64,000 nt of DNA from Vicinamibacterales bacterium (GTDB lineage: Bacteria; Acidobacteriota; Vicinamibacteria; Vicinamibacterales; UBA2999). The stretch lies in the NCBI GenBank assembly GCA_040081715.1, contig JBEBFY010000003.1, positions 6,524-70,523 on the forward strand. The letters run 5' to 3'. Both the position numbers and the translations under genes were made by a program. Numbering within the stretch: position 1 is the first letter of the stretch; every line of letters begins with the position of its first letter. Below the pieces are notes generated by a model. The model searched no databases. It worked only from the letters and a program-made list of their open reading frames with translations, and was not told the origin of the DNA. This document shows, piece after piece, positions 15,359-63,823 of the stretch.

Positions 15359-15376
15359 AAGGCCGCCGTAAAAGGG

Positions 15377-17757: not shown

Positions 17758-17775
17758 ACGGCTTCGTGCTCAGCC

Positions 17776-17804
17776 TTGACGGGATCCGGGGCCCCGGCTA
17801 CACT
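17776..17804 (+). promoter_or_regulatory. candidate sigma-70 promoter of the ilvB leader (TTGACG-17 nt-TACACT)
   Basis: The -35 box is at 17776-17781 and the -10 box at 17799-17804, with a 17-nt spacer. It lies in the divergent intergenic region. Confidence 0.4.
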
Positions 17805-17815
17805 GATCCGGTCAG

Positions 17816-17956: not shown

Positions 17957-18007
17957 TGCAGGCATAGCCTGACGCCAAGGCAAGCAAGTTCCGAGGCCAT
18001 CATCCAC
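17949..18007 (+). promoter_or_regulatory. antiterminator helix of the ilvB attenuator
   Basis: GTGGATGATG (17949-17958) is perfectly complementary to CATCATCCAC (17998-18007). This pairing is mutually exclusive with the terminator stem. An upstream pause-type hairpin pairs ATTCCGGG (17921-17928) with CCCGGAAT (17938-17945). Confidence 0.6.
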
Positions 18008-18025
18008 ACGGGTGATGGCCTTTTT
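17995..18025 (+). terminator. intrinsic terminator in the ilvB 5' leader
   Basis: GGCCATCATCC-ACAC-GGGTGATGGCC (11 bp, one G-U) followed by TTTTT, 41 nt upstream of the ilvB ATG. Confidence 0.7.
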
Positions 18026-18066
18026 CATTGGTGCGGCCGATAGAAGTTCAGACGAGAGAGCGAATC

Positions 18067-33910: not shown

Positions 33911-34693
33911 CTACGCACTCGGTAGCACGATGGCCGCTTGCACGGGCACGTCACGGGCGTCGCCGGGGTAGTAGACGCGCTCCAGCAGCAGCCCGGACGC
34001 CGGTGCCGTGAGCTGTGCCGGGAGGGGAGAGTCCGAGGTCAGCAGGTCCGCCGCGCGCTCCGCCGTCAGCCGGCCCTTGCCCACCTCGACGAGGATGCCC
34101 ACCAGGCGCCGCACCAACTTCCAGATGAAGTGGGAGCCCTCGACGTGCACCAGGATGAGGTCCCCGTCCTCGTAGACATCCAGCGCGTCGAGTTGCACGG
34201 TAGTGGACTTCTCATCCGGGTCATCATCGGAAAAGCTCCGGAAGTCGTGAAACCCGATAAAGCGGGCCGCCGCCTGCTGCATGGCCGTCAGGTCGAGCGG
34301 CTCCTTCACCCACCAGACGACCTGCTTTGAGAACGCGGTCCTCCTCCGGGCGATCTGGTAGATGTAGCTTCTCGCCACTGCGTCGTGCCGCGCGTGGAAG
34401 CGGTGCGGAACGGCTTCCACAGCGAGGAGCACAATGTCAGAGGGCAGGGCCTCGTTCACGCGATCCTTCAGCGTGGATGGTGACAGGGTGGTCCGGATCT
34501 CGAGGTGCGCCACCTGGCGCAGGGCGTGCACGCCGGCATCGGTTCGACCTGAGCCGTACAGCTCGAATCCGTGGGCGCCGGTAGCCTCTCCGATGGCCCG
34601 CTCGATGTCGCCAGCCACGGTGCGGGCATTCTTCTGGATCTGCCAGCCGCTGTAGCGGGTGCCGTTGTACTCGATCGTCAGCTTGAAACGCAT
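33911..34693 (-). CDS. truA: tRNA pseudouridine(38-40) synthase TruA
   Basis: MRFKLTIEYNGTRYSGWQIQ start and catalytic Asp context GSGRTDAGVHALRQV. The ATG at 34693 is chosen over the track start at 34921. Confidence 0.85.
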   Translation of the reverse strand: MRFKLTIEYNGTRYSGWQIQKNARTVAGDIERAIGEATGAHGFELYGSGRTDAGVHALRQVAHLEIRTTLSPSTLKDRVNEALPSDIVLLAVEAVPHRFHARHDAVARSYIYQIARRRTAFSKQVVWWVKEPLDLTAMQQAAARFIGFHDFRSFSDDDPDEKSTTVQLDALDVYEDGDLILVHVEGSHFIWKLVRRLVGILVEVGKGRLTAERAADLLTSDSPLPAQLTAPASGLLLERVYYPGDARDVPVQAAIVLPSA

Positions 34694-34796
34694 GCTGCGG
34701 TTATCAAACCACACGAGGCCCTTGGGAGGCGCCTGGAGACGCGAGGGCGAGCGGGAGCTGCGCTTGGGACGCGGCTCTTCGGTATACTCCCGGGCC

Positions 34797-36239
34797 ATGC
34801 AGAAGATGCTGCTCTCGATCGCCGGATTGGCTGCGTGCGCGACCGTCGCGATGCTGCTCTTCCTGGCTCCGGCGTTGCAGGCCAGGCAGGCCCCTCCGTG
34901 GGACGGCGCCTTTTCGGCCAATCAGATCAAGCGTGGCGAGGCGCTATACACAGGCAATTGCCTTGCCTGCCACAGCAAGGACCTGGCTGGCGGCGACCGC
35001 GCGCCGGCGCTGGCCGGCCCGGCCTTCAAGGGACGCTGGGGCACAAAGCCGTTGGCGGAGTTGCTCGACTACACGCAGATCCAGATGCCGTTGACGAGTC
35101 CCGGCGGGCTCACCCGGCATCAGAACGCCGACATCCTGGCGTTCATGCTCGCCAGAAACGGCGCCTCGGCCGGGACGAAGGACCTCTGGTTCGACGGGCC
35201 CGAAGGCGGTTCCGCGCCAGCCAGGCGCACGCCCGACTACATGAAGGTGGCCACGCCATCCAACCGGAAGGGCGAGGCCTTCTATTCGGAAGCTCAGGCC
35301 AGGCGGGGGAAGCTGGCCTTCAATCGCAACTGTGCGTTCTGCCACACCGTGGACCCACGCACCTCGACACCGGCCGACCTGCTGCAGGCGCTGCCGAGCA
35401 CGTTCGGCGGGCACTTCCTCGAACGGGTGGTTGACGGGAAGATGGTCTACCCGAACGTGCTGATGGTCTACAGCAAGCTGCTCTCGATGCCGGCGTTCAA
35501 CGTGAAGGGCATCTCGGAACAGCAGCGCGTCGATATCACATCGTACATTCTTCAGGCCAACGGGTACCCGTCAGGTCCTGACGAGATTCCCGTGGACGTG
35601 GACGCCATGCGCGTAATGTCCCTCAACGAGCCTGGCTTCGAGCGCATCTTCAACGGCAAGGACTTCACGGGCTGGAACTTCAACCTCGGGCCGAACTGCC
35701 GCGCGGCTCCAGACGGGTGCGGACGGACCGAACCGGGCGACGTGCTGCGCGCGGAGAAGGGCGCCCTCGTCTGTGAATGCCACGTGCACGGCATCTTCTA
35801 CACGGACAAGAAGTACAAGGACTTCACGTTGCGGTTCGACTTCATGTTCGAGAAGCCCTTCGAACTGGCGCCGGACGATGACGAAGAACTGTTCAGCGGC
35901 GGTGGGGGGTATCTCATTTTCTCGGACATCGGCGCGCCCGGTTATCCGAAGAGCATCGAGGTTGAGGGCCGGTACCGCGACCTCGGCGACTACTACGCCA
36001 TCGGCGGACCCGGCAAGGTCGGCACGGTGGACCTTGCGGCCAAGCGCCGCGTGATGCGCCCGCTGGGGCAGTGGAATCACTTCGAGATCGTGGCCAGAGG
36101 CGGCACGGTGGTGACGTCCCTGAACGGCACGGCGATCTCGAAGATCGACAAGCATGACTACACGGCCGCCGGCAACATCGCCATCCAGAGCCAGGGCCGG
36201 AAGATGGCCTACCGCAACATGCGAATCAAGGCGGAGTAG
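34797..36239 (+). CDS. secreted diheme c-type cytochrome fused to a DUF1080 (3-keto-disaccharide-hydrolase-like) domain
   Basis: Signal peptide and two heme motifs (CLACH, CAFCH). The C-terminal segment FNGKDFTGWNF...NGTAISK is typical of DUF1080. Confidence 0.75.
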   Translation: MQKMLLSIAGLAACATVAMLLFLAPALQARQAPPWDGAFSANQIKRGEALYTGNCLACHSKDLAGGDRAPALAGPAFKGRWGTKPLAELLDYTQIQMPLTSPGGLTRHQNADILAFMLARNGASAGTKDLWFDGPEGGSAPARRTPDYMKVATPSNRKGEAFYSEAQARRGKLAFNRNCAFCHTVDPRTSTPADLLQALPSTFGGHFLERVVDGKMVYPNVLMVYSKLLSMPAFNVKGISEQQRVDITSYILQANGYPSGPDEIPVDVDAMRVMSLNEPGFERIFNGKDFTGWNFNLGPNCRAAPDGCGRTEPGDVLRAEKGALVCECHVHGIFYTDKKYKDFTLRFDFMFEKPFELAPDDDEELFSGGGGYLIFSDIGAPGYPKSIEVEGRYRDLGDYYAIGGPGKVGTVDLAAKRRVMRPLGQWNHFEIVARGGTVVTSLNGTAISKIDKHDYTAAGNIAIQSQGRKMAYRNMRIKAE

Positions 36240-47567: not shown

Positions 47568-48965
47568 TCATCCCCGAGGCGCTTCATCGGCCGGCAGTGA
47601 CACGGTGGCGGTCGTGCCACCAGACGGTGGGCATACGACCGTGAGGGTGCCGCCGTGCATCTCGACCGAGCGCTTCGCGATGGCCAGTCCCAGGCCTCCG
47701 CCGCGCGACTTTGTGGTGAAGAACGGCTCGAAGACCCGTTCGCGGACATCCTCGGGGATGCCGGGCCCGGTGTCGGCGACGGCGATGCGCACCCACGACG
47801 CATCGGCGGTGATGGTTGCCGTCAGCGAGCCCCGCCCCCCCATGGCCTGGGCGGCGTTGATGAACAGGTTCGAGAACACCGCCCGAAGCATCACGCGGTC
47901 AGCGTGGAGGGCCACCTGGCCTCCGGCGATGCGGCAGGCGATGCCCGCCCCGGCCGGATCCCGGAGCAGAAGGACCTGTGCCTCCTCAACCAGCGCGCGC
48001 ACGTCGAGCAATTGCATCTGCGGGGGCCGTGGGCGGGCGAATAGCAGCAGGTCCGAGATCAGGTCGTTCAGTGCATCGGCGCGTTCGATGATTTCGTGCA
48101 TCACCGCCGCCTCCGGGTCGCCAGCCGGCCGGCGGCTCATCAGGACCTGCAGGGCGGCCTTGATCCCAGCCAGGGGGTTCTTGACCTCGTGCGCCACCAT
48201 GGCGGCGAGTTGTCCCACGCGGGCCAGGGCTTCCTGGTTTCGCAGGCGCTCCTCGCCGAGCTTGCGCTCCGTGATATCGCTTCTGATAGCGATGTACTGG
48301 TAGGGCCTGCCACGCGCATCGAGAAACGGGACGATCGTGGTGTCAACCCAGTAGTGGGCGCCGTCCTTGGCCTTGTTCCGGATTTCGCCGTGCCAGATCT
48401 GCCCACGGCCGATCGTCTGCCAGAGCTCCTTCATGAAGGTCTTGGAGTGCAGCCCAGAATTGATCAGGCGATGGTCCTGCCCGATGAGTTCCTCGCGGGA
48501 ATACTGGGAGATCTGGCAGAACTTGTCGTTCACGAACGTGATCCGGCCGGCCACGTCGGTGGTTGCCACGATGGCCGCCTCGTCGAGGGCGTGTCGCAGC
48601 TCTTCCAGCCGCGCCACCTGGGTCGCGGAATGCGCCTCGCTCCGCTTCAGGCGCACCAGCAGGCCCGCGCTGAGCCAGAAGAGCAGCACCGCCAGTGGCT
48701 GGTTGACGAAGGCGGATGGTGGAGGCATGGCCGTTATCCGAATGGCCGTATCGGCCAGGACGAGTACCGTGCTGGCGCCGGCAGCCACGACGGGATAGCG
48801 CAGGGAATTGATGCCGAGCCCGAGCAGAATCACCAGGATGTAGGCGACCCCCACGTTGTAGTCCAGGGGGAGGCGCACATCGATGAGGAAGATCAGCGTC
48901 GCGAGTGCGGCGCCGACGGCCACCAGCGTCCGGCTGGTGGCGGAGAGTCGGGCGGACGTGGGCAT
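47568..48965 (-). CDS. membrane-anchored PAS-domain sensor histidine kinase (NtrB-like)
   Basis: N-terminal multi-TM region, a PAS domain (GRITFVNDKFCQISQYSREELIGQDHRLINSG), HisKA AHEVKNPLAGI and HATPase DTGPGIP...GGGLGLAI. Confidence 0.85.
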   Translation of the reverse strand: MPTSARLSATSRTLVAVGAALATLIFLIDVRLPLDYNVGVAYILVILLGLGINSLRYPVVAAGASTVLVLADTAIRITAMPPPSAFVNQPLAVLLFWLSAGLLVRLKRSEAHSATQVARLEELRHALDEAAIVATTDVAGRITFVNDKFCQISQYSREELIGQDHRLINSGLHSKTFMKELWQTIGRGQIWHGEIRNKAKDGAHYWVDTTIVPFLDARGRPYQYIAIRSDITERKLGEERLRNQEALARVGQLAAMVAHEVKNPLAGIKAALQVLMSRRPAGDPEAAVMHEIIERADALNDLISDLLLFARPRPPQMQLLDVRALVEEAQVLLLRDPAGAGIACRIAGGQVALHADRVMLRAVFSNLFINAAQAMGGRGSLTATITADASWVRIAVADTGPGIPEDVRERVFEPFFTTKSRGGGLGLAIAKRSVEMHGGTLTVVCPPSGGTTATVSLPADEAPRG

Positions 48966-49118
48966 CGGAATCTCTTATAACCGGAAAACGGAGCACTCAT
49001 GACCAGCGGACGGGCGCGGAACTTGCTGTGCACTGTAGAAACCCCCGCAATTGAGGAGCCGAGCGTGAAATCTTCCACGTCCGTCGCGGATAAGTTCGCG
49101 CCGCCGTACTATGGGGCC

Positions 49119-50483
49119 ATGGCGAATGCCACGGTACTGGTTGTCGATGACGAAGCGTTGGTCCGCTGGTCGCTGCGCGAACGGCTGCTGCGGGATCGTT
49201 TCAACGTGCTCGAAGCCGGCACGGCCGCGTCGGCGCTGGAACAGGTCGGCGAGGCGGTGGACCTTATCCTGCTGGACTACCGGCTCCCGGACTCGGACGG
49301 ACTGGTGGTGCTGAGGAAGGTCAAGGAGCTCTACCCCGACACGCTCGTCATTCTGATGACCGCCCATTCCACGGTCGAGAACGCCGTGGAGGCGATGAAG
49401 CTGGGGGCCTTCCACTACATCAACAAGCCGTTCAACGTGGACGAGGTGGCCCTGCTGGTCGAGAAGGCGCTCGAAACCAGCCATCTGCGCCGGGAGGTGA
49501 AGGCGCTCCGAAGCTCAGCCGGGCGGGAATTCAGCTTCGATGCGATCGTGGGCACGTCCCCGAGCATGGAGGCCATCAAGGCGCTGCTGCGCCGCGTGGC
49601 GGTGAGCCCGGCCTCGACGGTGCTGCTGACGGGCGAGACGGGCACGGGCAAGGATCTTGTGGCCAAGTCCATTCACTACAACAGTGATCGGGCGACCCGG
49701 GCCTTCGTCAACATCACCTGCTCGGCGCTGCCAGAACACCTTCTCGAAAGTGAGTTGTTCGGCCACGAGCGCGGGGCGTTCACCGATGCCCGGACGCAGA
49801 AGCGGGGCCTGTTCGAAATAGCCGATGGCGGCACGGTGTTCCTCGACGAAATCGGCGAGATGACGCCGGCGCTCCAGGCCAAGCTCCTGCGCTTTCTGGA
49901 GGAGAAGACGTTCAAGCGCGTCGGCGGGCTGCAGGACATCCGCGTGGACGTGCGCGTGATTGCCGCCACGCACCGCGACCTCGATCAGGGCGTTAAGGAG
50001 GGCAGGTTCCGCGAGGACCTCTTCTACCGGCTCCAGGTGATGCCCATCCACCTGCCGTCGCTGCGGGAGCGCAAGGGGGACGTGCCGCTGCTGGCCAACT
50101 ACTACGTGGACACCTATAACCGCGAGTTCAAGAAGCACGTGAAGGGCATCACGCCGGAGACCATGCCGCTGCTCGAGAGTTACGGGTGGCCCGGCAATAT
50201 CCGTGAGCTGCGCAACGCCGTCGAGCGGGCGATGCTGTTGACCGAACGCGACTGGCTCAGGCCCGAGGACTTCACCACGCTCACGCGATCCGTCGGTGCG
50301 CCCTCCCGGTTCCAGCTCCCTCCCGACGGCATCAACCTGGAGGATGTGGAGCGGCAACTGCTCGTGCAGGCGCTGGAGCGATCCAACGGCAATCAGACGC
50401 ATGCGGGGCAGATGCTGGGGATCAACCGCGATCAGGTGCGCTATCGCATCGAGAAGTTCGGCCTCCAGATTTCTCAGAAATAA
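49119..50483 (+). CDS. sigma-54-dependent response regulator (NtrC family enhancer-binding protein)
   Basis: REC domain (VLVVDDE...LILLDYRLPDSDG), AAA+ domain (GETGTGKD; ESELFGHERGAFTDA, a GAFTGA-type loop) and a C-terminal Fis-type HTH (NQTHAGQMLGINRDQVRYRIEKF). Confidence 0.9.
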   Translation: MANATVLVVDDEALVRWSLRERLLRDRFNVLEAGTAASALEQVGEAVDLILLDYRLPDSDGLVVLRKVKELYPDTLVILMTAHSTVENAVEAMKLGAFHYINKPFNVDEVALLVEKALETSHLRREVKALRSSAGREFSFDAIVGTSPSMEAIKALLRRVAVSPASTVLLTGETGTGKDLVAKSIHYNSDRATRAFVNITCSALPEHLLESELFGHERGAFTDARTQKRGLFEIADGGTVFLDEIGEMTPALQAKLLRFLEEKTFKRVGGLQDIRVDVRVIAATHRDLDQGVKEGRFREDLFYRLQVMPIHLPSLRERKGDVPLLANYYVDTYNREFKKHVKGITPETMPLLESYGWPGNIRELRNAVERAMLLTERDWLRPEDFTTLTRSVGAPSRFQLPPDGINLEDVERQLLVQALERSNGNQTHAGQMLGINRDQVRYRIEKFGLQISQK

Positions 50484-52374: not shown

Positions 52375-52389
52375 TGGCAACGCGCTTGC
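52375..52389 (+). promoter_or_regulatory. sigma-54 promoter match TGGCAA-N5-TTGC
   Basis: TGGCAACGCGCTTGC(G), 27 nt upstream of the tandem-Usp ATG at 52416, with a GGAGG Shine-Dalgarno in between. This is the first gene of the cytochrome cluster strand. Confidence 0.6.
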
Positions 52390-52415
52390 GACACTGACCG
52401 GATGGAGGCCTCTCG

Positions 52416-53452: not shown

Positions 53453-54262
53453 ATGCGAGTGCGGGTTGTGATGATTCTGGCGGTGGCGTTGGTGGGGCTG
53501 ATGGCACCTGCCGCGATGGCGCAGTCGAGTAAGTGCGCTGATTGCCACTTTGCCAATCCTGATGCGCCACGCCGTGGCCACTTGAGCGACTGGGACCGGT
53601 CGGCACACGGCCGCCAGAACATCGGCTGCGAGCGGTGCCACGGGGGCAATGCCACGAGCTTCGAGAAGCTGGTGGCCCACAAGGGCATCATCGGATCCGG
53701 CGATCGCAAGAGTGCGGTGCACCGCGCCAACCTCCCGACGACCTGCGGCACTTGCCATGCGGGCCAGTTGATGGAGTTCCAGAAGTCGAAGCACTTTCAA
53801 CTCCTGAAGGCCGACGACAAGCGGGGCCCGACCTGCGCGACCTGCCATGAGGACGTGGGCGACACGCTGCTGTCGCCGAAGTCGCTGGAGGCCCAGTGCA
53901 ACTCCTGCCACGGACCCGGCAAGACGGCACCGCGGCCCGAGCGCGCGAAGAACGCGAGGGCGATGCTGGAAAGTGTGCGTGAAGCCAGGAACCTGCTGAA
54001 GCAGGGGCGTGACCTCATCAAGCAGGTCAAAGACCCACAGCGCAAGGCGCGGCTGACGCAGGAAGCCGAGATGGTGGCGCTGGAGTTGAAGTTCGCGGTT
54101 GAAGCCGGCCACTCGTTTGTCTACGACGGACTGGAGCAGCGCGTGTCGCGGGCCCGGACGAAGCTGACGGCTCTGTTTGACGGGTTGACCAACCCGGGTG
54201 CGGCGGCGAAGCCGGTCAAGGGCGTGCCCCCCCTGCCGGGCAGCACGCAGGCGCGCCGGTAG
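53453..54262 (+). CDS. periplasmic pentaheme c-type cytochrome with helical C-terminal tail
   Basis: Signal peptide MRVRVVMILAVALVGLMAPAAMA and five CxxCH motifs (CADCH, CERCH, CGTCH, CATCH, CNSCH). GGGAGG Shine-Dalgarno before the ATG at 53453. Confidence 0.8.
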   Translation: MRVRVVMILAVALVGLMAPAAMAQSSKCADCHFANPDAPRRGHLSDWDRSAHGRQNIGCERCHGGNATSFEKLVAHKGIIGSGDRKSAVHRANLPTTCGTCHAGQLMEFQKSKHFQLLKADDKRGPTCATCHEDVGDTLLSPKSLEAQCNSCHGPGKTAPRPERAKNARAMLESVREARNLLKQGRDLIKQVKDPQRKARLTQEAEMVALELKFAVEAGHSFVYDGLEQRVSRARTKLTALFDGLTNPGAAAKPVKGVPPLPGSTQARR

Positions 54263-54301
54263 GACGGTCCTGGGGTGCAGGTTGACCGCGGGAGGTGTGC
54301 G

Positions 54302-54712
54302 ATGTGCTCGCGGATTGTGAAGGTGTTCGCGGCCGGGTGTCTGTGCGTGGTCGTGGCCATGCCGTCATCCGGCCAGACTCCCGCTTTGAAGGCGCTAATG
54401 CGGGAGAAGCTGTCGCACTCGCAGCAGTTGCTGGATGCCGTGGTGACCAGCCGCTGGGTGCAGCTGGAAGCGCATGCGGTGGCGCTCCGGAAGTTGACCG
54501 GGCGGCCTGCCTGGATGGTGCTGCAGTCGCCTGAATACGCGCGGCAGACCGCGATATTCACCCGCGCGCTGGATGATCTGGTCGAGGCGGCCCGCCGCAA
54601 GGATCTTGAAGCCACGCCGGTTGCCTACACCGCCATGACGATGAGTTGCGTCCAGTGCCACCGCCAGGTGGCCCGCATGCGGATGGCCGACTCTCCGGCT
54701 TCCACCCGCTGA
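54302..54712 (+). CDS. class II (cytochrome c'-like, four-helix-bundle type) c-type cytochrome
   Basis: Signal peptide, a helical body and a single CxxCH near the C-terminus (MSCVQCHRQV), as in class II cytochromes c. GGAGG Shine-Dalgarno. Confidence 0.6.
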   Translation: MCSRIVKVFAAGCLCVVVAMPSSGQTPALKALMREKLSHSQQLLDAVVTSRWVQLEAHAVALRKLTGRPAWMVLQSPEYARQTAIFTRALDDLVEAARRKDLEATPVAYTAMTMSCVQCHRQVARMRMADSPASTR

Positions 54713-54812
54713 CAGGGCCGCGCCATCGCCTGACAACTGCCTCGCGGGCGGCCATTCCGGCCACGCCCCGGTATGGTCTCCGGCTTGCATTGCACTCCTC
54801 GCAGGAGGGGCG

Positions 54813-55037
54813 ATGCGGATTGTGCGATATCTCAAGTCGGCGCCGGGGCGCATCGCGCGCGGGTTCCTGGGGCTGGGACTCATCGGGGTCGGTGCTCGAA
54901 ACCAGACCGCGACAGGCCTGTTCCTGCTGATGCTGGGGCTGGTGCCGCTGTGCACCGCGATCGCCAATATCTGCCTCCTGGAAGACCTGCTGGCCGCCTG
55001 GGGCAATCGCCGGGACCGCGCGCACCAGCGCACATAG
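54813..55037 (+). CDS. DUF2892 (YgaP-like) small membrane protein
   Basis: GRIARGFLGLGLIGVG...GLVPLCTAIANICLL two-helix pattern typical of DUF2892. Confidence 0.6.
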   Translation: MRIVRYLKSAPGRIARGFLGLGLIGVGARNQTATGLFLLMLGLVPLCTAIANICLLEDLLAAWGNRRDRAHQRT

Positions 55038-55046
55038 GAGGACGTC

Positions 55047-55790
55047 ATGTTCGAGTCCATTAGCGAAGGACATTGCGCAATACCGCACGGAGACTCCGTG
55101 CCGCTGCTGCTGTCGTCCCTCCTGCACGGTGCCGGTTTGGCCGCAGTCATCCTGGTGCCGCTGTTGCTGGCGAACGGTCAGGTGCCCACGTTGCCATCGA
55201 TGATGGCGTTTGTCGCGCGAGAGCCCGCGGCACCACCACCACCGCCGCCGCCGGCGGCTCCAGCCTCCGCGGCAAAGGACGCTGCGGTCCGGCCGACGCC
55301 GTCCTCCAATCCCAGTGCGGCGCCTCTTGAGGCTCCTGCGGAGATCACGCCTGAGCCCGCGCGGGCTGGGTCTGACGACGGCGTGGAGGGCGGTGTGGCA
55401 GGTGGCGTGCTTGGCGGCGTAGTCGGTGGAATCCCGACGGCAGCACCGGCGCCACCACCGCCACCACCGGCGCCGGCACCGGTGGTGCCACGGGCACCGA
55501 TTCGGGTGGGTGGCGAGCTGCAGGTGCCCGCGCTTCTGAAGCGCGTCGGACCTGACTACCCGGAACTGGCTGTACGGGCGCAGGTCGAAGGCGTCGTCAT
55601 TCTCGAGGCGGTTGTCGGCGAGAGCGGGCGCGTGGAGGATGTCCGGGTCCTGCGTTCGATCCCACTGCTCGACAACGCCGCCAAGGCGGCCGTGCGGCAA
55701 TGGGAGTACTCGCCGCTGCTCCTGAACGGCAAGGCGGAGCGATTCATCGTGACGGTGACCGTCAGCTTCCAATTGAAACGGCAGAGTTGA
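55047..55790 (+). CDS. TonB-family energy transducer
   Basis: N-terminal TM, a Pro-rich spacer (PPPPPPPAAP... PPPPPPAPAP) and a C-terminal TonB domain (PDYPELAVRAQVEGVVILEAVVGESGRVEDVRVLRS...AAKAAVRQWEYSP). Confidence 0.85.
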   Translation: MFESISEGHCAIPHGDSVPLLLSSLLHGAGLAAVILVPLLLANGQVPTLPSMMAFVAREPAAPPPPPPPAAPASAAKDAAVRPTPSSNPSAAPLEAPAEITPEPARAGSDDGVEGGVAGGVLGGVVGGIPTAAPAPPPPPPAPAPVVPRAPIRVGGELQVPALLKRVGPDYPELAVRAQVEGVVILEAVVGESGRVEDVRVLRSIPLLDNAAKAAVRQWEYSPLLLNGKAERFIVTVTVSFQLKRQS

Positions 55791-55907
55791 TGTGGGGCTC
55801 CAGACAACGAATGGTCTGCGGGATAGTTCGTGGGCGCGGGAGTTCCTTCGAGTCTGTCCTTATATGCCAGGCGACGTTCCGAAGATAATGACGGGGTGGG
55901 AGGGTAC

Positions 55908-56240
55908 ATGGTTCGAGTGATGGGGATGCTGGCGGTTGTGGGTTGCGTGCTGCTGCCCGGAGTTGCGCGGGCGGAGACGCCTGCCGAGAAGGGTGCCACG
56001 GTGTACGGAGCCCAGAAGTGCGGGATGTGTCACTCCGTGGCCGGCAAGGGCAATCCGAAGGGAGTGCTCGACGGCGTGGGCAAGAAGCTGAAGGCCGATG
56101 AGATCAGGGAGTGGATCGTAGATGCGCCGGCCATGATGGCGAAGGCGAAGGCCACCCGCAAGCCGGCGATGAAGGCCTACGCGAATCTCTCGAAAGGTGA
56201 CCTCGAGGCGCTGGTGGTCTACCTGCAGAGCCTGAAGTAG
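55908..56240 (+). CDS. small class I monoheme c-type cytochrome
   Basis: Signal peptide, a CGMCH motif and a distal Met region (KPAMKAY). About 110 aa. Confidence 0.75.
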   Translation: MVRVMGMLAVVGCVLLPGVARAETPAEKGATVYGAQKCGMCHSVAGKGNPKGVLDGVGKKLKADEIREWIVDAPAMMAKAKATRKPAMKAYANLSKGDLEALVVYLQSLK

Positions 56241-56267
56241 GCGGCCCGGGTTCCCGGGGGATCGTCC

Positions 56268-57629
56268 GTGCGCTCGTTCCTGCAGGCGTTTGTCAGAAAT
56301 GGTCTATCCCTCGTGGGGACCGCGATCGCGACGGCGATGGCGGCGCTCTTTGTCGCACTGGCCCTGCTCGACCTCGCGGGGTATCTCACCAACCCCTATC
56401 TCGGCCTGCTGCTTTTTGTGGCCATCCCGACGGTGTTCGTTGCCGGGCTGCTGCTGATCCCGCTCGGCCTCTGGCGCGAGCGGCGTCGGCGCGCCCGGAC
56501 GCCCGAAGCGGCGACGGGCGAGTGGCCCGTGTTCGACCTCCGCATCGCGCGCCAGCGCGCGATCGCCGTGGCAGTGCTGACCCTGACGGTGGTCAATCTC
56601 GTGATTGTGTCGATGGCGGCGTACGGGGGCGTGCACTACATGGAGACGCGGGAGTTCTGCGGCCAGGTGTGCCACGAGACGATGGAGCCGCAGTATGTGG
56701 CGCATCAGACCGGCCCGCACTCCCGCGTCGCGTGCGTGTCGTGTCACGTCGGGTCGGGTGCGGGGGCGGTCGCACGGTCCAAGTTCAAGGGGCTGCGGCA
56801 GTTGGTGCTTGTAGCGACGGACCGGGCACCTCGGCCTGTGGCCCCGCCGCTGCAGGTCATGCGGCCCGCAGTGGAGACGTGCGAACAGTGCCACTGGCCG
56901 GAGAAGTTTCACGGCGACAGACAGAAAGTTGTGCGCGAGTACGGCGACGACCAGGCGAGCACCGAGACGGGGACCACGCTGACGCTGCACCTCGGCGGCG
57001 GCAGCGCCGTACTCGGCATCGGCACCGGCATCCACTGGCACATGAACCTTGACAATGTCGTCGAATTTGTCGCCACCGACTCCACCCGGCAGTCGATTCC
57101 CTATGTGCGGTTGACCAACCGGGAGGGCCGCGTGAAGGAGTACGTGGCGGAAGGGGCGGACCGGACGACTCTTGCGGCACAGCCCATGCATCGGATGGAC
57201 TGCGTGGACTGCCACAACCGTCCCGCGCATGCCTTCAGCCCCTCGCCGGCACGAGCGGTCAACGAGGCGATGGCTCAGGGGCGGGTGCCGCGTGACCTTC
57301 CGTTCGCCCGCCGTGAGGTGCTGGCAGCAGTGAGCGACGGGTACCCCTCGCGCGATTCGGCGCGCGCGGGCATCGCGCGAAGGCTTGAGGGGATCTACCG
57401 GGCGCAGGGCATCAGCGCCGACCGCACGGCTCGTCTGGTGGCTGGGGCGCAGGACGTGTATGCCCGCAACGTGTTCCCGGCCATGCGAGTGAGTTGGGGC
57501 ACGTATCCGAACAACATTGGCCATATGGATGCGCCGGGGTGCTTCCGTTGCCACGACGATAGCCACAAGGCGGGGGACGGCAGCGTCCTCACACAGGACT
57601 GCGAAACCTGCCACACGGCGCCACAGTAA
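56268..57629 (+). CDS. membrane-anchored NapC/NirT-like multiheme cytochrome c (candidate quinol dehydrogenase)
   Basis: About 3 N-terminal TM helices, then a NapC-like EFCGQVCHETM (a CX3CH variant) plus five CxxCH motifs (CVSCH, CEQCH, CVDCH, CFRCH, CETCH). Confidence 0.7.
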   Translation: MRSFLQAFVRNGLSLVGTAIATAMAALFVALALLDLAGYLTNPYLGLLLFVAIPTVFVAGLLLIPLGLWRERRRRARTPEAATGEWPVFDLRIARQRAIAVAVLTLTVVNLVIVSMAAYGGVHYMETREFCGQVCHETMEPQYVAHQTGPHSRVACVSCHVGSGAGAVARSKFKGLRQLVLVATDRAPRPVAPPLQVMRPAVETCEQCHWPEKFHGDRQKVVREYGDDQASTETGTTLTLHLGGGSAVLGIGTGIHWHMNLDNVVEFVATDSTRQSIPYVRLTNREGRVKEYVAEGADRTTLAAQPMHRMDCVDCHNRPAHAFSPSPARAVNEAMAQGRVPRDLPFARREVLAAVSDGYPSRDSARAGIARRLEGIYRAQGISADRTARLVAGAQDVYARNVFPAMRVSWGTYPNNIGHMDAPGCFRCHDDSHKAGDGSVLTQDCETCHTAPQ

Positions 57630-57639
57630 CGAGGAGACC

Positions 57640-58629
57640 ATGGGGAATCACAAATCGAGTCACCAATCCAGCAACGCGGCGGCGCGCGCGTACTGGCCCG
57701 CGATCCTGGTGGTCGCGCTGGGCGTGACATGGGCCGGCACCGTGATGCTCGCCGCCGCCCCGGCCCGGCCGCGCCAGGTGAGCGCGACGCCTGCAGCGAC
57801 TGCACCCGCGGCCGCGCAGGGGGCCTATGCGGGGCAGGCCGCGTGCCTGGGTTGCCACGCCGAAATGGACTACAAAGGGACGCTGCACGGGCTCGCGTCG
57901 CGTCCGCGCACGCCGGCGGCGACGCACGGCTGCGAAAGCTGCCATGGGCCGGGGCAGGCCCACGCCGAGTCCGGCGAGGCGTCACTGATCCGCAACCCGA
58001 AGAAGCAGACGCCGCAGCAGGCGAGCGAGGCCTGCGTGAGCTGCCACAACCGCGGCACGCACGCGCTGTGGACCGGCAGCCAGCATGACCAGCGCAACGT
58101 CGGCTGCATCACGTGTCACAGCGTGCACACCCCAAAGGGGCCCGCGCAGCTCAAGGCGGCGAGCCAGAAGGAACTGTGCGCGACGTGCCACCGGCCGGTG
58201 ACCAACAAGCAGCACCGGTTCAGCCACATGCCCGTGCGCGAAGGCAAGCTGGAGTGTTCCTCCTGCCACAACACGCACGGCTCCACCAACCAGTCGCTGC
58301 TCAAGACCGGCACCACCGTGGATGAGTCCTGCACCAGCTGCCACGCGGAGAAACGCGGGCCGTACCTCTGGGAGCATGCGCCGGTGGCCAATGCCTGCGT
58401 CACCTGCCATGACCCGCATGGGTCCAACAATGAACGGATGCTGGCGGCGAAGGTGCCCTTCCTGTGCCAGCGGTGCCACGTGACGTCGCGCCATCCGCCA
58501 ACCGTGTACGACGGCTTCGTGCGGAACAACTCGACCAACGCCAACAAGATCATCGGCCGAGGCTGCGTCGTGTGCCACTCGCAGATTCACGGGTCGAATG
58601 CCCCGTCGGGCAAGTCGTTCCTGCGCTAG
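57640..58629 (+). CDS. DmsE/MtrA-family periplasmic decaheme c-type cytochrome
   Basis: Ten CxxCH motifs in 329 aa, at the spacing typical of MtrA/DmsE/PioA/MtoA. The C-terminal CVVCHSQIHGSNAPSGKSFLR matches the family ending. GAGGAG Shine-Dalgarno. Confidence 0.85.
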   Translation: MGNHKSSHQSSNAAARAYWPAILVVALGVTWAGTVMLAAAPARPRQVSATPAATAPAAAQGAYAGQAACLGCHAEMDYKGTLHGLASRPRTPAATHGCESCHGPGQAHAESGEASLIRNPKKQTPQQASEACVSCHNRGTHALWTGSQHDQRNVGCITCHSVHTPKGPAQLKAASQKELCATCHRPVTNKQHRFSHMPVREGKLECSSCHNTHGSTNQSLLKTGTTVDESCTSCHAEKRGPYLWEHAPVANACVTCHDPHGSNNERMLAAKVPFLCQRCHVTSRHPPTVYDGFVRNNSTNANKIIGRGCVVCHSQIHGSNAPSGKSFLR

Positions 58630-58637
58630 GGGAGATC

Positions 58638-60938
58638 ATGCGAACCACAGTTGTGATAGCGGCAGCAGCAGTTACGATCGTCCTGAGCGGGCAGGCACTG
58701 GCGCAGACGCCAGCTGCCAGCGAGGCCAGAAGCCGGGCGGTCACCGGCGTCGTCGACGTCGGTGCCCGCGGGACCTCGGGCTCCGGCGACGAGGCCCGTT
58801 ATGAGCGGTACAGGGATCTGCGCACGGGGGTCTTCTCGCACCTGGTGTTCGGCTCGGCGGACGAGTCGCGGATCTGGTCGGCGGGCGCCGAGAATGTCGG
58901 GTACCGCAACCAGGAATACGTGTTCCGCTACGCCGGCGGTCCGGTCACGCTGAAGGGCGGTTTCGATTCGACGCCTCTCAACTACAGCTACCTGACGTCC
59001 ACGCCGTGGCGCATGGACTCCCCTGGTGTCTTCTCGCTCGACGCGGCCGCCCGCGGGCAGGTGCAGGGCCGGGTGCCGGGTGTCGTGGGCGTGCCGTCGT
59101 CGGTCGCCCAGTTGTCGACGCCTTCGATCTTCCGAGGACTGGCCAATCCCTTTGACCTGCGGTCCCGGCGCGACACGGCGTCGGCGTCCGTGGCGGTGGA
59201 CGCGACCAGGGCGCTCGGCTGGTCGCTGGCGTTCACGTCCACGGGCAAGACCGGCAGCCAGCCCTACGGGGCCTCCTTCGCCTTCAACAACGCCAACGAG
59301 TTGCCCCTGCCGATCGACCATCGCACCAACGATGTGTCGGCGGGCCTGGAGTACACGCGCGAGCAGGGCATGGTGCGTCTGGGCTGGCAGGCCTCGTGGT
59401 TCACCAACGCGATCCAGGAGCTCATCTGGGACAACCCGCTCCGCCAGACGGATACCACGCCCTTCGATGCCAGTGGATACAGCAACGGCAACGGACCGGC
59501 GCGCGGCCGTCTGGCCATGGCGCCCAGCAACCACATGGCGGCCGTCAACGTTACCGGCCTCTACAAGATGCCGGGCCGCACCACGGTCAATGGTGTTTTT
59601 GCCTTCACCACCATGGGGCAGAACGACACGCTCATCCCCTGGACGATCAATAACGCGATTGCCAACCCGTCGGTGTACGGCACCTATCCCGGACTGGCCA
59701 GCCTGCCCCGGCCCACGGCCGAGGCCAAGGTGCACGGCGTCAACGGCATGGTGAACGTGACCTCGCGGCCGAACCGCGTATTCAGCCTGACCACCCGGTA
59801 CCGCTTCAACGACCACCGCAATCTCACGCCGGCTTTCGATGCCCGGCAGTACGTGCGTTTCGACGCTGCGCCGTACTCCGGCGGGTCGTTCAGCCAGAAC
59901 TTCAACATCCGGCAGAACACTTTCGACACGACGGCCGCCTTCAACTTGCGCCCGTCATCAACCCTCCGCGTCGGCTACACCTTCGACGACTTCGACCGCA
60001 CGGGCCGCTCCTTCAGCGACATGCGCGACCATATCGTGCGGGCCTCGTTCGACCAGATGGGCAACCAGTGGGTGACCGTGCGGCTGTCAGCGGACCACAC
60101 GACCCGTGAGGGATTCGGGTTTTCCGAAGCGTCGCTGGAAGACGGCGGACTGCAGCCGGGTGTGCGGTTCTACGATGAGTCCGACCGGAACCGGAATCGC
60201 GGCACGGCCCTCGTGGTGCTGACGCCTGCCTCGTTTATGGACGTGACCTTCACCGCGACGGCCGGCAAGGACATCTACAAGGGCGAGGGGCACGAGTTCG
60301 GGCTGCTGAACAACACGAACCGGTCACTGAACGTCGGCCTGAACGTGAGCCCGGGTGAGCACGCATCCTTCGGGTTCAGCATCGGCCGCGAGATGTTCAA
60401 CTCCCTGCAGCGGTCGCGGAACGCGAACCCGCCCGGAACCGACTACGGCAGCTGGACGGATCCGAACCGGACCTGGGACCTGACGAACGACGAACAGGTC
60501 AACATCGTGGATGTGTATGTGGATCTGGCCAAGCTGTTCCGCGCGTTCGACCTGCGGGCGGACTACCTCTACAGCGACTCCGACAACGGATTCGTCCACA
60601 GTGGTCCACGCGTGGTGGCACTTTCCACCAACGCCGCACTGACACCCGGCGACAGCCGGCCCTGCACGGCGGGGCTCACGTCCTGCTTCGAGGCGTTGCC
60701 GAACGTGACCAATGCCTGGCACCGGGTCACCCTCGACGGGACGCGGTACTTCACCGAGAAGGTCGGCATCGGCGTCAGCTACTGGTACGAGCGGTTCGAC
60801 GTGACCGACTTCGCGCGGGTGGATCTGGCCGGGACGGCACTCCCGCGTATCGACTATCTGGGCGAGATCAACACGGGCTATGGCAACCGGCCGTACCGGG
60901 GCAGTTCGATCTTCACCCGTCTGCTGTATCGTTTCTAA
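58638..60938 (+). CDS. MtrB/PioB-family decaheme-associated outer-membrane beta-barrel protein
   Basis: It follows the decaheme gene after an 8-nt gap. It has a signal peptide (AAAVTIVLSGQALA), N-terminal YERYRDLRTGVF and VGYRNQEY motifs seen in MtrB/PioB, alternating beta-strand patterning over about 740 aa, and a terminal LLYRF. Confidence 0.8.
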   Translation: MRTTVVIAAAAVTIVLSGQALAQTPAASEARSRAVTGVVDVGARGTSGSGDEARYERYRDLRTGVFSHLVFGSADESRIWSAGAENVGYRNQEYVFRYAGGPVTLKGGFDSTPLNYSYLTSTPWRMDSPGVFSLDAAARGQVQGRVPGVVGVPSSVAQLSTPSIFRGLANPFDLRSRRDTASASVAVDATRALGWSLAFTSTGKTGSQPYGASFAFNNANELPLPIDHRTNDVSAGLEYTREQGMVRLGWQASWFTNAIQELIWDNPLRQTDTTPFDASGYSNGNGPARGRLAMAPSNHMAAVNVTGLYKMPGRTTVNGVFAFTTMGQNDTLIPWTINNAIANPSVYGTYPGLASLPRPTAEAKVHGVNGMVNVTSRPNRVFSLTTRYRFNDHRNLTPAFDARQYVRFDAAPYSGGSFSQNFNIRQNTFDTTAAFNLRPSSTLRVGYTFDDFDRTGRSFSDMRDHIVRASFDQMGNQWVTVRLSADHTTREGFGFSEASLEDGGLQPGVRFYDESDRNRNRGTALVVLTPASFMDVTFTATAGKDIYKGEGHEFGLLNNTNRSLNVGLNVSPGEHASFGFSIGREMFNSLQRSRNANPPGTDYGSWTDPNRTWDLTNDEQVNIVDVYVDLAKLFRAFDLRADYLYSDSDNGFVHSGPRVVALSTNAALTPGDSRPCTAGLTSCFEALPNVTNAWHRVTLDGTRYFTEKVGIGVSYWYERFDVTDFARVDLAGTALPRIDYLGEINTGYGNRPYRGSSIFTRLLYRF

Positions 60939-60940
60939 GC

Positions 60941-61396
60941 GTGGCCGACCCGACTGAACCCGATTCGCACGCCGGCGATCGGCGCAGGTTCCTGGATGCC
61001 GTGCTGACATTCGGGTTCGTCTCGACGGCCGTGGCGGTGGCGTACCCGGTGGCCCGCTACATGGTTCCACCGGCCAGCGAGGAGCCCTCGACGGTCAGCG
61101 CGGTGGCGGCCAAGGACGCCGCCATGCCGCCCAACAGCGGCGTCGTCTTCAAGTTCGGCAACAAGCCAGGCATCCTGGTGCGAGACCACGCCGGCGACCT
61201 GCACGCCTTCGACGCCGTCTGCCCGCACCTCGGCTGCACCGTTCAATACCGCCCGGAGACGTCGGATATCTGGTGCGCCTGTCACAATGCGGTGTTCGAC
61301 GTGGGCGGCAACATTGTCTCGGGCCCGCCGCCTCGCCCGCTGGAACGTCTCACGGTGAACGTGAGCGGCGAGGACCTGGTGGTCAGCCGTGGCTAG
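60941..61396 (+). CDS. Rieske [2Fe-2S] subunit of a cytochrome bc-type complex
   Basis: Twin-arginine signal ([10 protein letters not shown]) and Rieske boxes CPHLGC and CACHNAVF. It starts 2 nt after the barrel gene stop. Confidence 0.85.
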
Positions 61397-62513
61397 CCAC
61401 GGCGCCGGGCCGCAGCGGCCGGAAGGGGAGGGCACATCCTCCGGACTCTACGGCTGGCTGGATGAGCGGCTGGACCTGACCGCTATCAGGACATTCGCCG
61501 CCGAGAAGACCGTGCCCGTGCACAAGCGGGAGTTCTGGTACTGCCTCGGCGGTATCACACTGTTCCTGTTTGCCGTGCAGGTGGCCACCGGCATCCTGCT
61601 GATTCTGTACTACCGGCCCAGTGCCGAGGAAGCTTACGAGAGCGTCCAGTTCATCGTGACGCAGGTGGAGTTCGGCTGGCTCATCCGCAACGTCCACGGC
61701 TGGTCCGCCAACCTCCTGATCGGATCGGCGTTCCTCCACATGTTCAGCGTGTGGCTGCTGACGTCCTACCGGAGGCCCCGGGAGATTACCTGGGTCAGCG
61801 GCGCCATCCTGCTGTTTTTGATGATGGCCTTCGGGTTCAGCGGGTACCTGCTCCCGTGGAACGAGCTGGCCCTGTTTGCCACCAAGGTGGGGACCGGCAT
61901 TGTCGGCGCGGTGCCTCTGATTGGCCCGTTCGCCATGCGGGTACTGCGCGGCGGTGACGAAGTGACCGGTGCCACGCTTTCGCGCTTCTATGGGTTCCAC
62001 GTGGCGGTGCTGCCCGCCGTGACCACGCTCCTCTTAGGCCTCCACGTCCTGCTCGTGCAGCGGCAGGGCATGAGCGTGCCCATTGACGTGGAGCAGGCGG
62101 AGCGCGCCGGGTCGCCGCCGAAGAGCCGGCCGTTCTTCCCGGACTTCTTCCTGCGCGACCTCGTGCTCTGGTACGTGGCCATTGCCATCATCGCGGCATT
62201 GGCCGCGTTCCTCCCGTGGGAGTTGGGGAAGAAGGCGGACCCGTTTGCGCCCGTGCCGCCGGGCATTCGGCCTGAGTGGTACTTCGTGGCCATGTTTCAC
62301 ACGCTCAAGCTGATCCCCGGGCACGTCCTCGGCATCGAGGGCGAGGTGCTCGGGATTCTTGGCTTTGGCGTGTTGGCGCTGATCCTCATCGCCATACCGT
62401 TTCTCGATCGGCGGGCCTCGCGTGGCGAGCGGAACCCGATCTTCACGGCGATGGCCTGGCTGGGCATCGCCTACCTGGTGGTGTTCACCATCGTGGGATA
62501 CCTGGCGGAATGA
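61389..62513 (+). CDS. cytochrome b (b6-like N-domain fused to subunit-IV-like C-domain)
   Basis: Heme-ligand His pairs ([19 protein letters not shown]; [21 protein letters not shown]) and the Qo-site motif PEWYF. The GTG start overlaps the Rieske gene stop. Confidence 0.85.
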
Positions 62514-63823
62514 GACCCCCCTGGCTGATCGCGATCTGGGTCGCCGGTGTGCTGGCGTTGGCCGGCACCGGCGGACGCGTGGCGCACCTGGCGGCGCAGC
62601 CGGCTGGCCAGCCTTCCGGACGGGTGGCGAGTGGACCGAACGGGTGCGTGACGTGTCACAGCGCGGAGCGCGAGGCATCCCTCTCGGCTCCGGTCGCGGC
62701 GCACAGGGCTGATGTCCACGGGCAGCGAGGGATCGGCTGCGTGGAGTGCCACGGCGGCGATGCCACGACCGCGGACAAGGTAAAGGCCATGTCGGCCGCG
62801 GCCGGCTTCAAGGGGAAGCTCACGGGCCAGGCGCAGGTGCTGGCGTGCGCGCGGTGCCACAGCGACGCGGCGTATATGCGGACCTTCTCGCCCAAACAGC
62901 GGGTGGACCAGGCGGTCGAGTACGCCGCGAGCGCGCACGGTCGGCGGCTCGCGGAGGGAGACACCCGCGTGGCGACCTGCGCGAGTTGCCACGGGGCGCA
63001 TGGTGTCAGGTCCGCATCGGACGCGCAGTCGCCGGTGTACGCCACCAACGTGGCCGGCACTTGCGGTTCGTGCCACAGCGACGCTCGGCGGATGACGAGG
63101 CACGACGGCACAGCGCATCCCACCGCGGCCGTGGCGGACTACACGTCCAGCGTGCACTTCGACGCCCTGTCGAGACGTCGCGATCTCTCGGCACCTACCT
63201 GCAACGATTGCCATGGCAACCACGGAGCCGCGCCGCCCGGCGTGGACGCGGTCAGCAACGTCTGTGGAACCTGTCACGCTGTGTTTGCCGCCCGTTTCGA
63301 CACCAGCCCTCACAAGCCGGTGTTTGAGAAGGCCTGCGTCGATTGCCACGGCAACCACGCAGTGGTCCGGCCAACCGAAGCGCTCATGGGCACCGGCGCC
63401 GGTGCGATCTGCGTGACCTGTCACGCCGAGAAGGACGACCCGGGTTTCAGGGGGGCCGCCGCCATGCGGGCGTCAATCGACCGCCTCTCCGGCCACATCG
63501 CGAAGGCGGCTGGCGTTGTCGAGCAGGCGAGAAACGCGGGGATGGAAGTCGGCGACCAGGACCTGGCCCTCGGGAAGGCTCGCGATCAGCTGATGCTGGC
63601 GCGCACCGATGTTCATACCTTTGACCCGAAGAAGGTGGAGGGTGTGACCGCCGACGGCGACAAGGTCGCAGCCGAGGCCGAAGCCGGCGGCCGCCGTGCC
63701 CTCGAGGAGCTCAGCTTCAGGCGCCGCGGTCTCACGGCATCGCTGGTGCTGATCCTGGCCGTCGTCGGAGCACTGACGCTGAAAATCCGCCAGATCGACC
63801 AGCGCAGGTCAGCCGCGCAATAA
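62510..63823 (+). CDS. membrane-anchored nonaheme c-type cytochrome (replaces cytochrome c1/f in the bc-type complex)
   Basis: Nine CxxCH motifs, an N-terminal signal/anchor and a C-terminal TM ([17 protein letters not shown]). Its ATG overlaps the cytochrome b stop (ATGA at 62510-62513). Confidence 0.8.

Follow-up and report, generated by a model that had tools for sequence, protein, structure and literature searches.

The way in which conduits for extracellular electron transfer are joined to the quinone pool, and the energy conserved at this step, are to our knowledge open for most organisms beyond Shewanella and Geobacter. The question is raised anew by a 64,000-nucleotide (nt) stretch of contig JBEBFY010000003.1 from a Vicinamibacterales bacterium (the window, by which we mean this whole stretch), where genes for a Rieske protein, a cytochrome b, and a nine-haem (nonaheme) c-type cytochrome, together called the triad here, directly follow genes for an MtrA-like decaheme cytochrome and an MtrB-family outer-membrane barrel. 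Does the Q-cycle complex encoded by the triad exchange electrons with the MtrAB conduit encoded beside it? We establish the identities of these genes, their packing in an operon, and the recurrence of their synteny, and from this sequence evidence we estimate a probability of about 50% that a real electron-transfer link, in either direction, joins triad and MtrAB. If a Q-cycle complex were hard-wired to MtrAB, the energy yield from respiring minerals or humics would be higher, and the same complex in reverse would define a path by which electrons from Fe(II) could move uphill. The carriers, Vicinamibacteria and Blastocatellia, are among the commonest soil bacteria and mostly pass for plain aerobic heterotrophs; if the link works, the organisms credited with soil Fe, Mn, and humic redox cycling would have to be reassessed. 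The main value of the locus is a concrete hypothesis on how very abundant soil bacteria might conserve energy in extracellular electron transfer or run this transfer in reverse. The genes at the centre of the argument are the following, with lengths in amino acids (aa).

57640..58629, + strand: MtrA/DmsE-family decaheme cytochrome, 329 aa, ten CxxCH motifs (NCBIfam TIGR03508, 8.8e-76)
58638..60938, + strand: MtrB/PioB-family outer-membrane beta-barrel, 766 aa (Pfam PF11854, 7.8e-72)
60941..61396, + strand: Rieske 2Fe-2S subunit, 151 aa (Pfam PF00355, 7.2e-13, and a match to the PetC transmembrane anchor)
61389..62513, + strand: cytochrome b, 374 aa, with a b6-like N-terminal half fused to a subunit-IV-like C-terminal half (Pfam Cytochrome_B, 3e-51; Cytochrom_B_C, C-terminal/PetD, 2.9e-11)
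62510..63823, + strand: nonaheme c-type cytochrome, 437 aa, nine CxxCH motifs, at the gene position of cytochrome c1/f

The MtrB-family gene ends with a TAA at 60936-60938 and the Rieske gene opens with a GTG at 60941, leaving a gap of 2 nt; this GTG is the sole start codon upstream of the Rieske twin-arginine motif RRRF, and no Shine-Dalgarno sequence precedes it. The GTG of cytochrome b at 61389 produces an 8-nt overlap with the Rieske gene, which stops with a TAG at 61394-61396, and cytochrome b and nonaheme genes share an ATGA, in which the nonaheme start at 62510 runs into the cytochrome b stop, so that the last three junctions (MtrB/Rieske, Rieske/cytochrome b, and cytochrome b/nonaheme) measure +2, −8, and −4 nt; the nonaheme gene ends at 63823. 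A preliminary description of this DNA had reported the 2-nt spacing and both overlaps, and the coordinates bear this out: raw sequence, open reading frame map, and gene calls made independently on the same DNA (locus L084) give identical boundaries. It had also spoken of a "direct genetic fusion" to the MtrAB conduit, a wording that we correct: the genes are separate, and the junction points to translation of Rieske being coupled to termination of MtrB within an operon. All genes from 53453 to 63823 lie on the + strand, with a largest intergenic gap of ~120 nt. GC content and GC content at third codon positions (GC3) are uniform across this run, which therefore gives no sign of recent import, and a recent horizontal insertion of the MtrAB module is unsupported. 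Terminator-like hits across the run are at chance level (5 found versus 5.2 expected), all of them inside genes and none between, and no sigma-70 promoter-like site was found between operon genes; both scans are weak for this phylum and yield only an absence of contrary evidence. The same holds for the space between 60938 and 60941, where, by the preliminary description, a separating terminator or promoter would have undermined the link and where no such site is seen.

The synteny recurs widely when it is sampled from the nonaheme side. Eighty genome loci retrieved by nonaheme similarity, with 10-kb flanks, came mostly from Vicinamibacterales and Blastocatellia/Pyrinomonadaceae, together with NC10, Binatia, Gemmatimonadota, and KSB1; loci from NC10 and Chloracidobacterium-labelled metagenome-assembled genomes (MAGs) are among them. 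In essentially every complete locus of these 80 the three triad genes lie side by side, with the nonaheme gene either last (Rieske-cytochrome b-nonaheme) or first (nonaheme-Rieske-cytochrome b). Fifty-nine triad loci are informative about the neighbourhood: 35 have an MtrA-like decaheme and an MtrB-family barrel (counting both barrel types described below) within 10 kb of the triad, and 24 are barrel-free with at least 5 kb of upstream DNA. The pair lies upstream on the same strand in 28 of the 35 linked loci and within 500 nt in 19. The adjacency that the preliminary description had wanted to see conserved in relatives is indeed found there: in L081, L082, and L083, whose nonaheme proteins are ~79% identical to ours, the boundaries are the same, including the 2-nt junction, within the order monohaem cytochrome c-NapC-like-MtrA-MtrB-Rieske-cytochrome b-nonaheme. 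A second Vicinamibacterales group, with an MtrB only ~31% identical, has at most ~40 nt between MtrB stop and Rieske start, and the two genes even overlap in L023 and L025 (ATGGTGA).

Iterated hidden Markov model searches identified MtrB homologues near the triad in Vicinamibacterales-type loci, and in Blastocatellia a protein of 700-750 aa without a Pfam match sits between the MtrA-like decaheme and the Rieske gene. Profile-profile comparison with hhalign shows the latter family to be a distant MtrB/PioB homologue (98.1%, E 1e-13 over 607 aligned columns), present in L063 (5901-8141) and 17 other loci; because standard MtrB models would miss it, Mtr-type conduits in Blastocatellia have probably been under-counted. 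The MtrB proteins adjacent to triads form at least nine sequence clusters at 50% distance, convergent, divergent, and inverted arrangements all occur, and the association spans two acidobacterial classes as well as Binatia and NC10. A lone MtrB gene would fall within 10 kb by chance in a ~5-Mb genome in ~0.4% of cases, and the number of MtrB clusters together with the variety of orientations disfavours a single accident that became fixed.

To read the converse sampling, the genes upstream of MtrA are needed as well; listed from the 5' end of the run, they give, with the five genes above, the complete order from 53453 to 63823.

53453..54262, + strand: pentahaem paralogue of the nonaheme protein (aligns with it at E 2e-12 over haems 1-5)
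54302..54712, + strand: cytochrome c'-like protein (domain search and gene calls)
54813..55037, + strand: YgaP-like small membrane protein (domain search and gene calls)
55047..55790, + strand: TonB (domain search and gene calls)
55908..56240, + strand: class I monohaem cytochrome c, 110 aa (Pfam Cytochrom_C, 3e-10)
56268..57629, + strand: NapC/NirT-family inner-membrane multihaem cytochrome, 453 aa (Pfam Cytochrom_NNT, 1.2e-6)

Several observations weigh against a tie between triad and conduit. The nonaheme-based sampling is biased towards Acidobacteriota. Of the 59 informative triad loci, 24 lack an MtrB-family gene within 10 kb. When MtrB similarity (41-60% identity) was used to retrieve 80 metagenome loci, the triad was present in only 5, and among the 49 loci that extend 1.5 kb or more downstream, the Rieske gene comes next after MtrB in only 2. 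In about half of these MtrB-selected loci a NapC-like gene flanks MtrA directly upstream, often with a monohaem c gene upstream of it, and the frequency of this neighbour compared to the rarity of the triad suggests that MtrAB has its own, more constant partner at the quinone pool. Since the triad also occurs without MtrAB nearby and its nine haem motifs are invariant, it looks like a general complex III rather than a dedicated driver of the conduit; it is probably the normal complex III in Vicinamibacteria, Blastocatellia, and NC10 and in related groups. By the same token, the invariance of the nine motifs in 90 homologues makes it unlikely that so long a haem chain evolved for MtrA in particular. 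Part of the asymmetry between the two samplings arises because MtrA-MtrB pairs stand in tandem, two to four in a row, on some contigs that lack Rieske and cytochrome b genes in the vicinity (L127, 1-12295; also L128, L146, and L150).

Taken to its end, this evidence would make triad and conduit neighbours rather than partners: the triad would be a housekeeping complex III that serves terminal oxidases by way of the monohaem c, MtrAB would be linked to the quinone pool by nothing but the NapC/ImcH-like protein, and co-location would reflect shared regulation of respiratory and haem-rich genes instead of electron exchange. Besides the invariant haem motifs, the free-standing occurrence of both parts speaks for this explanation, the monohaem c-NapC-MtrA-MtrB set in many metagenome loci (75 of the 80 MtrB-selected loci lack the triad) and the monohaem c-Rieske-cytochrome b-nonaheme set without MtrAB in, for example, L002, L012, and L031; the monohaem c gene thus recurs upstream of both. 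We take this explanation seriously but consider it rather unlikely. Against it stand an association that recurs in at least nine MtrB clusters, in several orientations, and across two acidobacterial classes, Binatia, and NC10, triad-linked MtrAB pairs that have no NapC-like gene within 10 kb (for example, in L021, L028, L034, L035, L057, and L062), and the finding that in two separate lineages the adjoining stop and start codons make synthesis of the Rieske protein depend on translation of MtrB. In sum, NapC-MtrA-MtrB, with or without monohaem c, is a self-contained, often multi-copy module, and it has been brought together with the triad repeatedly, lying directly upstream of it and, by its junction, translationally coupled to it in the lineage of the window. 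The preliminary description had proposed that the complex feeds the conduit or is fed by it. Recurrent synteny and the junction uphold the link in this proposal; an exclusive link is weakened by the 24 barrel-free loci, by the 5 of 80 in the converse sampling, and by the NapC/ImcH-like cytochrome, a more constant neighbour of MtrAB that is encoded in this very operon and that the earlier description had left unweighed. We therefore read the synteny as suggesting, without proving, an electron exchange that would be functional and not exclusive.

Our analysis of the triad itself places the Rieske and cytochrome b proteins in the Rieske/cytochrome b superfamily. The Rieske protein has a twin-arginine translocation (Tat) signal (DRRRFLD), one transmembrane anchor (hydrophobic segment 17-35), the cluster ligands with box I CPHLGC, and both disulfide cysteines; against the NCBIfam model of the b6f iron-sulfur subunit it reaches 3.4e-20, under the curated cut-off. 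In cytochrome b, the family models in Pfam and NCBIfam agree on a b6 part (3e-74) and a subunit IV part (1e-8), and the best matches among PDB sequences are cytochrome b6 chains (1q90_B, 5.7e-63). Its four haem-ligating histidines on helices B and D, H103/H117 (Hx13H) and H204/H219 (Hx14H), have b6-type spacing, and the PEWY Qo motif lies at residues 295-298 and is present in 74 of 81 relatives. Beyond helix D the protein continues with three hydrophobic helices, which resemble those of subunit IV. Motifs and domain models thus agree with the two histidine pairs, PEWY motif, and b6/subunit-IV fusion first noted in the preliminary description. The complex is distinct from cytochrome b6f proper in that its cytochrome b is fused and its c-type partner is a nonaheme protein without similarity to cytochrome f in Pfam/NCBIfam or in PDB profile searches. 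Based on gene order, Rieske, cytochrome b, and nonaheme proteins would form one quinol:cytochrome c oxidoreductase.

Two sites in this complex differ within the family. Box II of the Rieske protein reads CACHNAVF in the window compared to CACHNGxY in relatives (both boxes lie at window positions 61220-61300): Ser is absent from box II throughout the family and Tyr from that of the window's lineage, where, as a narrow lineage trait, the box I Thr is replaced by Pro and the box II Tyr by Phe. The box II Ser and Tyr are hydrogen-bond donors that raise the Rieske potential, and their loss predicts a low midpoint potential; because CACHNAVF lacks both donors, we predict a low-potential centre here, which would fit a menaquinol oxidase. 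In cytochrome b, Cys52 (WYCLGG, window 61542-61544) aligns exactly with Cys35 of b6 (1q90_B), to which haem ci is attached there. This cysteine is confined to the window and its closest relatives L081-L083 (5 of 81 sequences); Tyr occupies the site in 71 of 81, and the motif is WYY[LFM]GG elsewhere. Because of this restriction to the window's own lineage, we do not claim a haem-ci-containing complex. The Phe takes away the last hydrogen-bond donor known to raise the Rieske potential, and the two Rieske changes together with Cys52 may indicate that the complex has been re-tuned in the lineage that has the translational coupling to MtrB.

Behind an N-terminal signal peptide, the nonaheme protein has a haem domain (residues ~41-310). 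Three long helices occupy residues 311-436, and a C-terminal transmembrane segment (408-426) lies in the third; motif count and hydrophobic segment agree with the earlier reading of a 437-aa, nine-CxxCH protein with a C-terminal membrane anchor at the c1/f position. The family is large (>7,000 homologues), and all nine CxxCH motifs are invariant in 90 of 90 aligned homologues. An AlphaFold2 model (mean predicted local distance difference test score, 85) gave no Foldseek match in the PDB at E<=1e-3, and a profile search of PDB sequences returned only NrfB/NrfA fragments, none of them significant. The position of the gene suggests that the nine-haem protein takes the place of cytochrome c1/f in the complex, and this conserved replacement would represent an uncharacterised type of subunit without a solved structural relative. 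Could it instead be a catalytic multihaem enzyme of the NrfA/ONR/HAO kind, joined to a Rieske/cytochrome b complex as has been proposed in anammox, and reducing or oxidising a soluble nitrogen or sulfur compound instead of serving as a wire? The best fold matches, all non-significant, are Kuenenia HAO (E 0.06), TvNiR, and NrfA, there is a weak Pfam Cytochrom_C552 match (E 0.005), and anammox complexes carry hexa- or octahaem subunits (PMC12954380). However, no fold or sequence match reaches significance, and the nine motifs all follow the standard CxxCH pattern, so that a catalytic site of the CxxCK type is missing. An NAD(P) oxidoreductase subunit is likewise absent from the vicinity, and the neighbours are electron-transfer proteins and not nitrogen- or sulfur-cycle enzymes; we therefore consider catalysis very unlikely. 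The pentahaem paralogue at the start of the run is soluble and shortened, with a similar helical tail and without a membrane anchor; it could be a periplasmic or extracellular partner.

On the conduit side, the MtrA protein scores 254.8 bits against TIGR03508, over the 192.2-bit cut-off, and matches chain A of PDB entry 6r2q, which we take to be the Shewanella baltica MtrCAB structure, over its full length (4.8e-64); the MtrB family profile matches chain B of the same entry over residues 79-718 (9.1e-45). The decaheme gene lies directly upstream of the barrel gene, separated by 8 nt, as is characteristic of MtrAB, PioAB, and MtoAB. No OmcA/MtrC-family protein was found among the cluster genes, where NCBIfam TIGR03507 gives only weak partial hits, and the extracellular decaheme MtrC/OmcA that marks the Shewanella-type MtrCAB is thus missing. 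The NapC-like protein has three N-terminal transmembrane helices and six haem motifs, five CxxCH preceded by one CX3CH (FCGQVCH, window 56655-56672) that is kept in 26 of 26 homologues examined; its topology and NapC/NirT Pfam match suggest an ImcH-like protein, Geobacter ImcH having a NapC/NirT-like domain, about three transmembrane helices, and about seven haems.

How might these parts work together? The Rieske/cytochrome b complex, b6-like and of the fused type, would oxidise menaquinol. The triad forms the distal end of an operon with a complete Mto/Mtr-type envelope module (monohaem c, NapC/ImcH-like quinol dehydrogenase, MtrA, and MtrB), and one periplasmic electron pool would be common to both systems. 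The nine-haem subunit, with or without the monohaem c, would relay the electrons of the Rieske centre to the MtrA held within the MtrB barrel and thus to the outside, a contact between nonaheme protein and MtrA that we infer from synteny. Q-cycle-coupled menaquinol oxidation could in this way be discharged on extracellular, fairly high-potential acceptors when oxygen is scarce, candidates being Mn(IV), chelated Fe(III), humics, and partner cells, and the NapC-like protein would offer a parallel, uncoupled route for lower-potential acceptors. Such outward flow meets two difficulties. MtrA-type haems are usually of low potential, and without a strongly oxidising final acceptor the step from Rieske to MtrA may be an uphill one; furthermore, a conduit without MtrC follows the PioAB/MtoAB pattern, typical of Fe(II) oxidisers.

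The sequence is compatible with either direction, and the reverse one deserves to be set out in full. MtrAB, acting as MtoAB/PioAB, would take electrons from extracellular Fe(II) or a cathode-like donor, and these would pass through monohaem c and nonaheme protein to the Rieske/cytochrome b complex, running in reverse on the proton-motive force, and into menaquinone, with a branch to an oxidase. A set of monohaem c, NapC/NirT-type cytochrome, decaheme, and barrel without MtrC mirrors mtoABD-cymA of Sideroxydans (PMC5566968, PMC10654088), and in Acidithiobacillus uphill flow is served by a bc1 operon of its own (PMC10654088). The low Rieske potential predicted from CACHNAVF, without the Ser and Tyr donors, would make the uphill step smaller, but it is equally expected for ordinary menaquinol oxidation. 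We regard inward flow as a serious but unlikely reading and slightly favour the outward direction because no carbon-fixation or other lithotrophy genes lie within the 64-kb window, because the upstream context (a PAS kinase/sigma-54 regulator pair and a Usp gene) is of a stress/redox-sensing type, because related clusters such as L063 add CbcL-like and ImcH-like genes, partners known from outward transfer in Geobacter, and a Crp/Fnr-type regulator, and because a MAG survey judged most carriers of such clusters to be heterotrophic (PMC13264449). The L063 locus (3781-18385, from a Blastocatellia MAG) encodes this regulator, an MtrA-like decaheme, the divergent MtrB-like barrel, and the triad, as well as three further multihaem cytochromes, a CbcL-like fusion (multihaem plus Ni_hydr_CYTB), and an ImcH/NapC-like protein, which puts three different quinone-pool modules in one locus. 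In L048, L051, L054, and L064, a second, divergent Rieske-cytochrome b-multihaem triad (~30-35% identical) lies a few kilobases from the first.

A stronger version of the link would have the nine-haem subunit physically bridge the Rieske centre at the Qo site to MtrA, which would give abundant soil Acidobacteriota an unbroken, reversible haem wire between menaquinone pool and cell surface. We hold this to be improbable; if true, extracellular respiration would be coupled to a proton-translocating Q cycle, or electrons derived from minerals or cathodes would be pumped uphill, in a trans-envelope supercomplex of complex III and conduit. We know of no organism in which such a supercomplex has been demonstrated.

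Compared to known systems, the components and the general idea are not new, with precedents in the Geobacter Ext cluster and in a survey of karst MAGs. The extHIJKLMNOPQS cluster of Geobacter sulfurreducens encodes a Rieske protein (ExtO), a cytochrome b (ExtP), 10- and 12-haem cytochromes (ExtN/ExtM), and a porin-like protein (ExtI), and has been proposed to link inner membrane and periplasm (PMC5877670). As in the window, genes for Rieske, b6-like cytochrome b, and large multihaem proteins adjoin the gene of a porin-like outer-membrane protein; the window's cytochrome b matches the ExtP model at 9.3e-64 (215 bits, under the 290-bit cut-off). However, ExtP is a four-helix N-terminal half only (205 positions) compared to the fused protein here, ExtI is phosphate-porin-like and not an MtrB-family barrel, the multihaem partners are not homologous in architecture, and the rhodanese and selenoprotein genes of ext are absent from the window's cluster, where ExtM gives only a weak match, to the pentahaem protein; the cluster is thus distinct from Ext (Cbc5). 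The karst survey from 2026 describes, as group 2 of its porin-cytochrome clusters, a small decaheme beside a porin of 25-36 strands, often with an ImcH- or NapC/NirT-like inner-membrane cytochrome, and notes in one sentence that cytochrome b and Rieske genes (petB/petC) are also present in several MAGs (PMC13264449). By this description they are very probably of the same type as the window's cluster; a nonaheme subunit, translational coupling, and a distribution across Acidobacteriota are not part of that report.

The MtoAB-MtoD-CymA systems of Sideroxydans/Gallionella and PioAB of Rhodopseudomonas likewise combine a decaheme with an MtrB/PioB-family barrel without an MtrC-type cytochrome, and Mto systems share with the window a monohaem c, here in an operon position like that of MtoD, and a NapC/NirT-family inner-membrane cytochrome (PMC5566968, PMC10654088). 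In these organisms, however, the bc1 genes are elsewhere in the genome, whereas the triad adjoins MtrAB in the window, and the NapC-like protein, with its three transmembrane helices, six haem motifs, and CX3CH, is unlike the tetrahaem CymA. The complexes Kustd1480-85 and Kuste4569-74 of the anammox bacterium Kuenenia also combine a b6-like cytochrome b, a subunit-IV-like part, and a multihaem c replacing cytochrome f, the latter a hexa- or octahaem protein (PMC12954380). They differ in their split b6 and subunit IV, an NAD(P) oxidoreductase subunit, and a location in the anammoxosome membrane with no outer-membrane conduit, compared to the fused cytochrome b, nine-haem partner, and adjacent MtrAB pair of the window, in whose operon and annotated neighbours no NAD(P) oxidoreductase gene was found. 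A precedent for the cytochrome b is the Chlorobi/NC10/Acidobacteria clade of Kao and Hunte (2014), which shares PEWY and has a predicted Rieske potential of low to mid-minus (PMC4122944), a prediction that the low potential expected here would fit. In the same work the CxGG motif of haem ci is reported from no cytochromes b other than split ones, those of Firmicutes, cyanobacteria/chloroplasts, and the APWY clade (PMC4122944), whereas the YCLGG of the window stands in a fused protein. Surveys of MtrCAB and of quinol dehydrogenases for extracellular electron transfer make no mention of Rieske or cytochrome b, and our literature searches returned nothing specific on a nonaheme Rieske partner or on Mtr systems of Vicinamibacteria. 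As far as we found, the nonaheme replacement of c1/f, the breadth of the association across Acidobacteriota, and the translational coupling have not been described before.

Some further features of the window touch on regulation and neighbourhood. A Usp gene and a divergent pair encoding a PAS histidine kinase and a sigma-54-dependent response regulator (47568-50483) lie upstream of the run, and a −24/−12-like element, TGGCAACGCGCTTGCG, is located at 52375-52390, 26 nt ahead of the Usp gene, the first in the + strand run. This is one plausible site for a sigma-54 promoter served by the adjacent regulator, and it is not significant: the consensus scan of the window gave 32 hits versus 27 expected, with no enrichment. 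The YgaP-like small membrane protein and TonB genes, 9 nt apart, sit in the middle of the cytochrome operon (54813-55790). Elsewhere, at 34659-36239, the window encodes a dihaem cytochrome c fused to a 3-keto-disaccharide hydrolase (DUF1080-type) domain, an arrangement unrelated to the triad.

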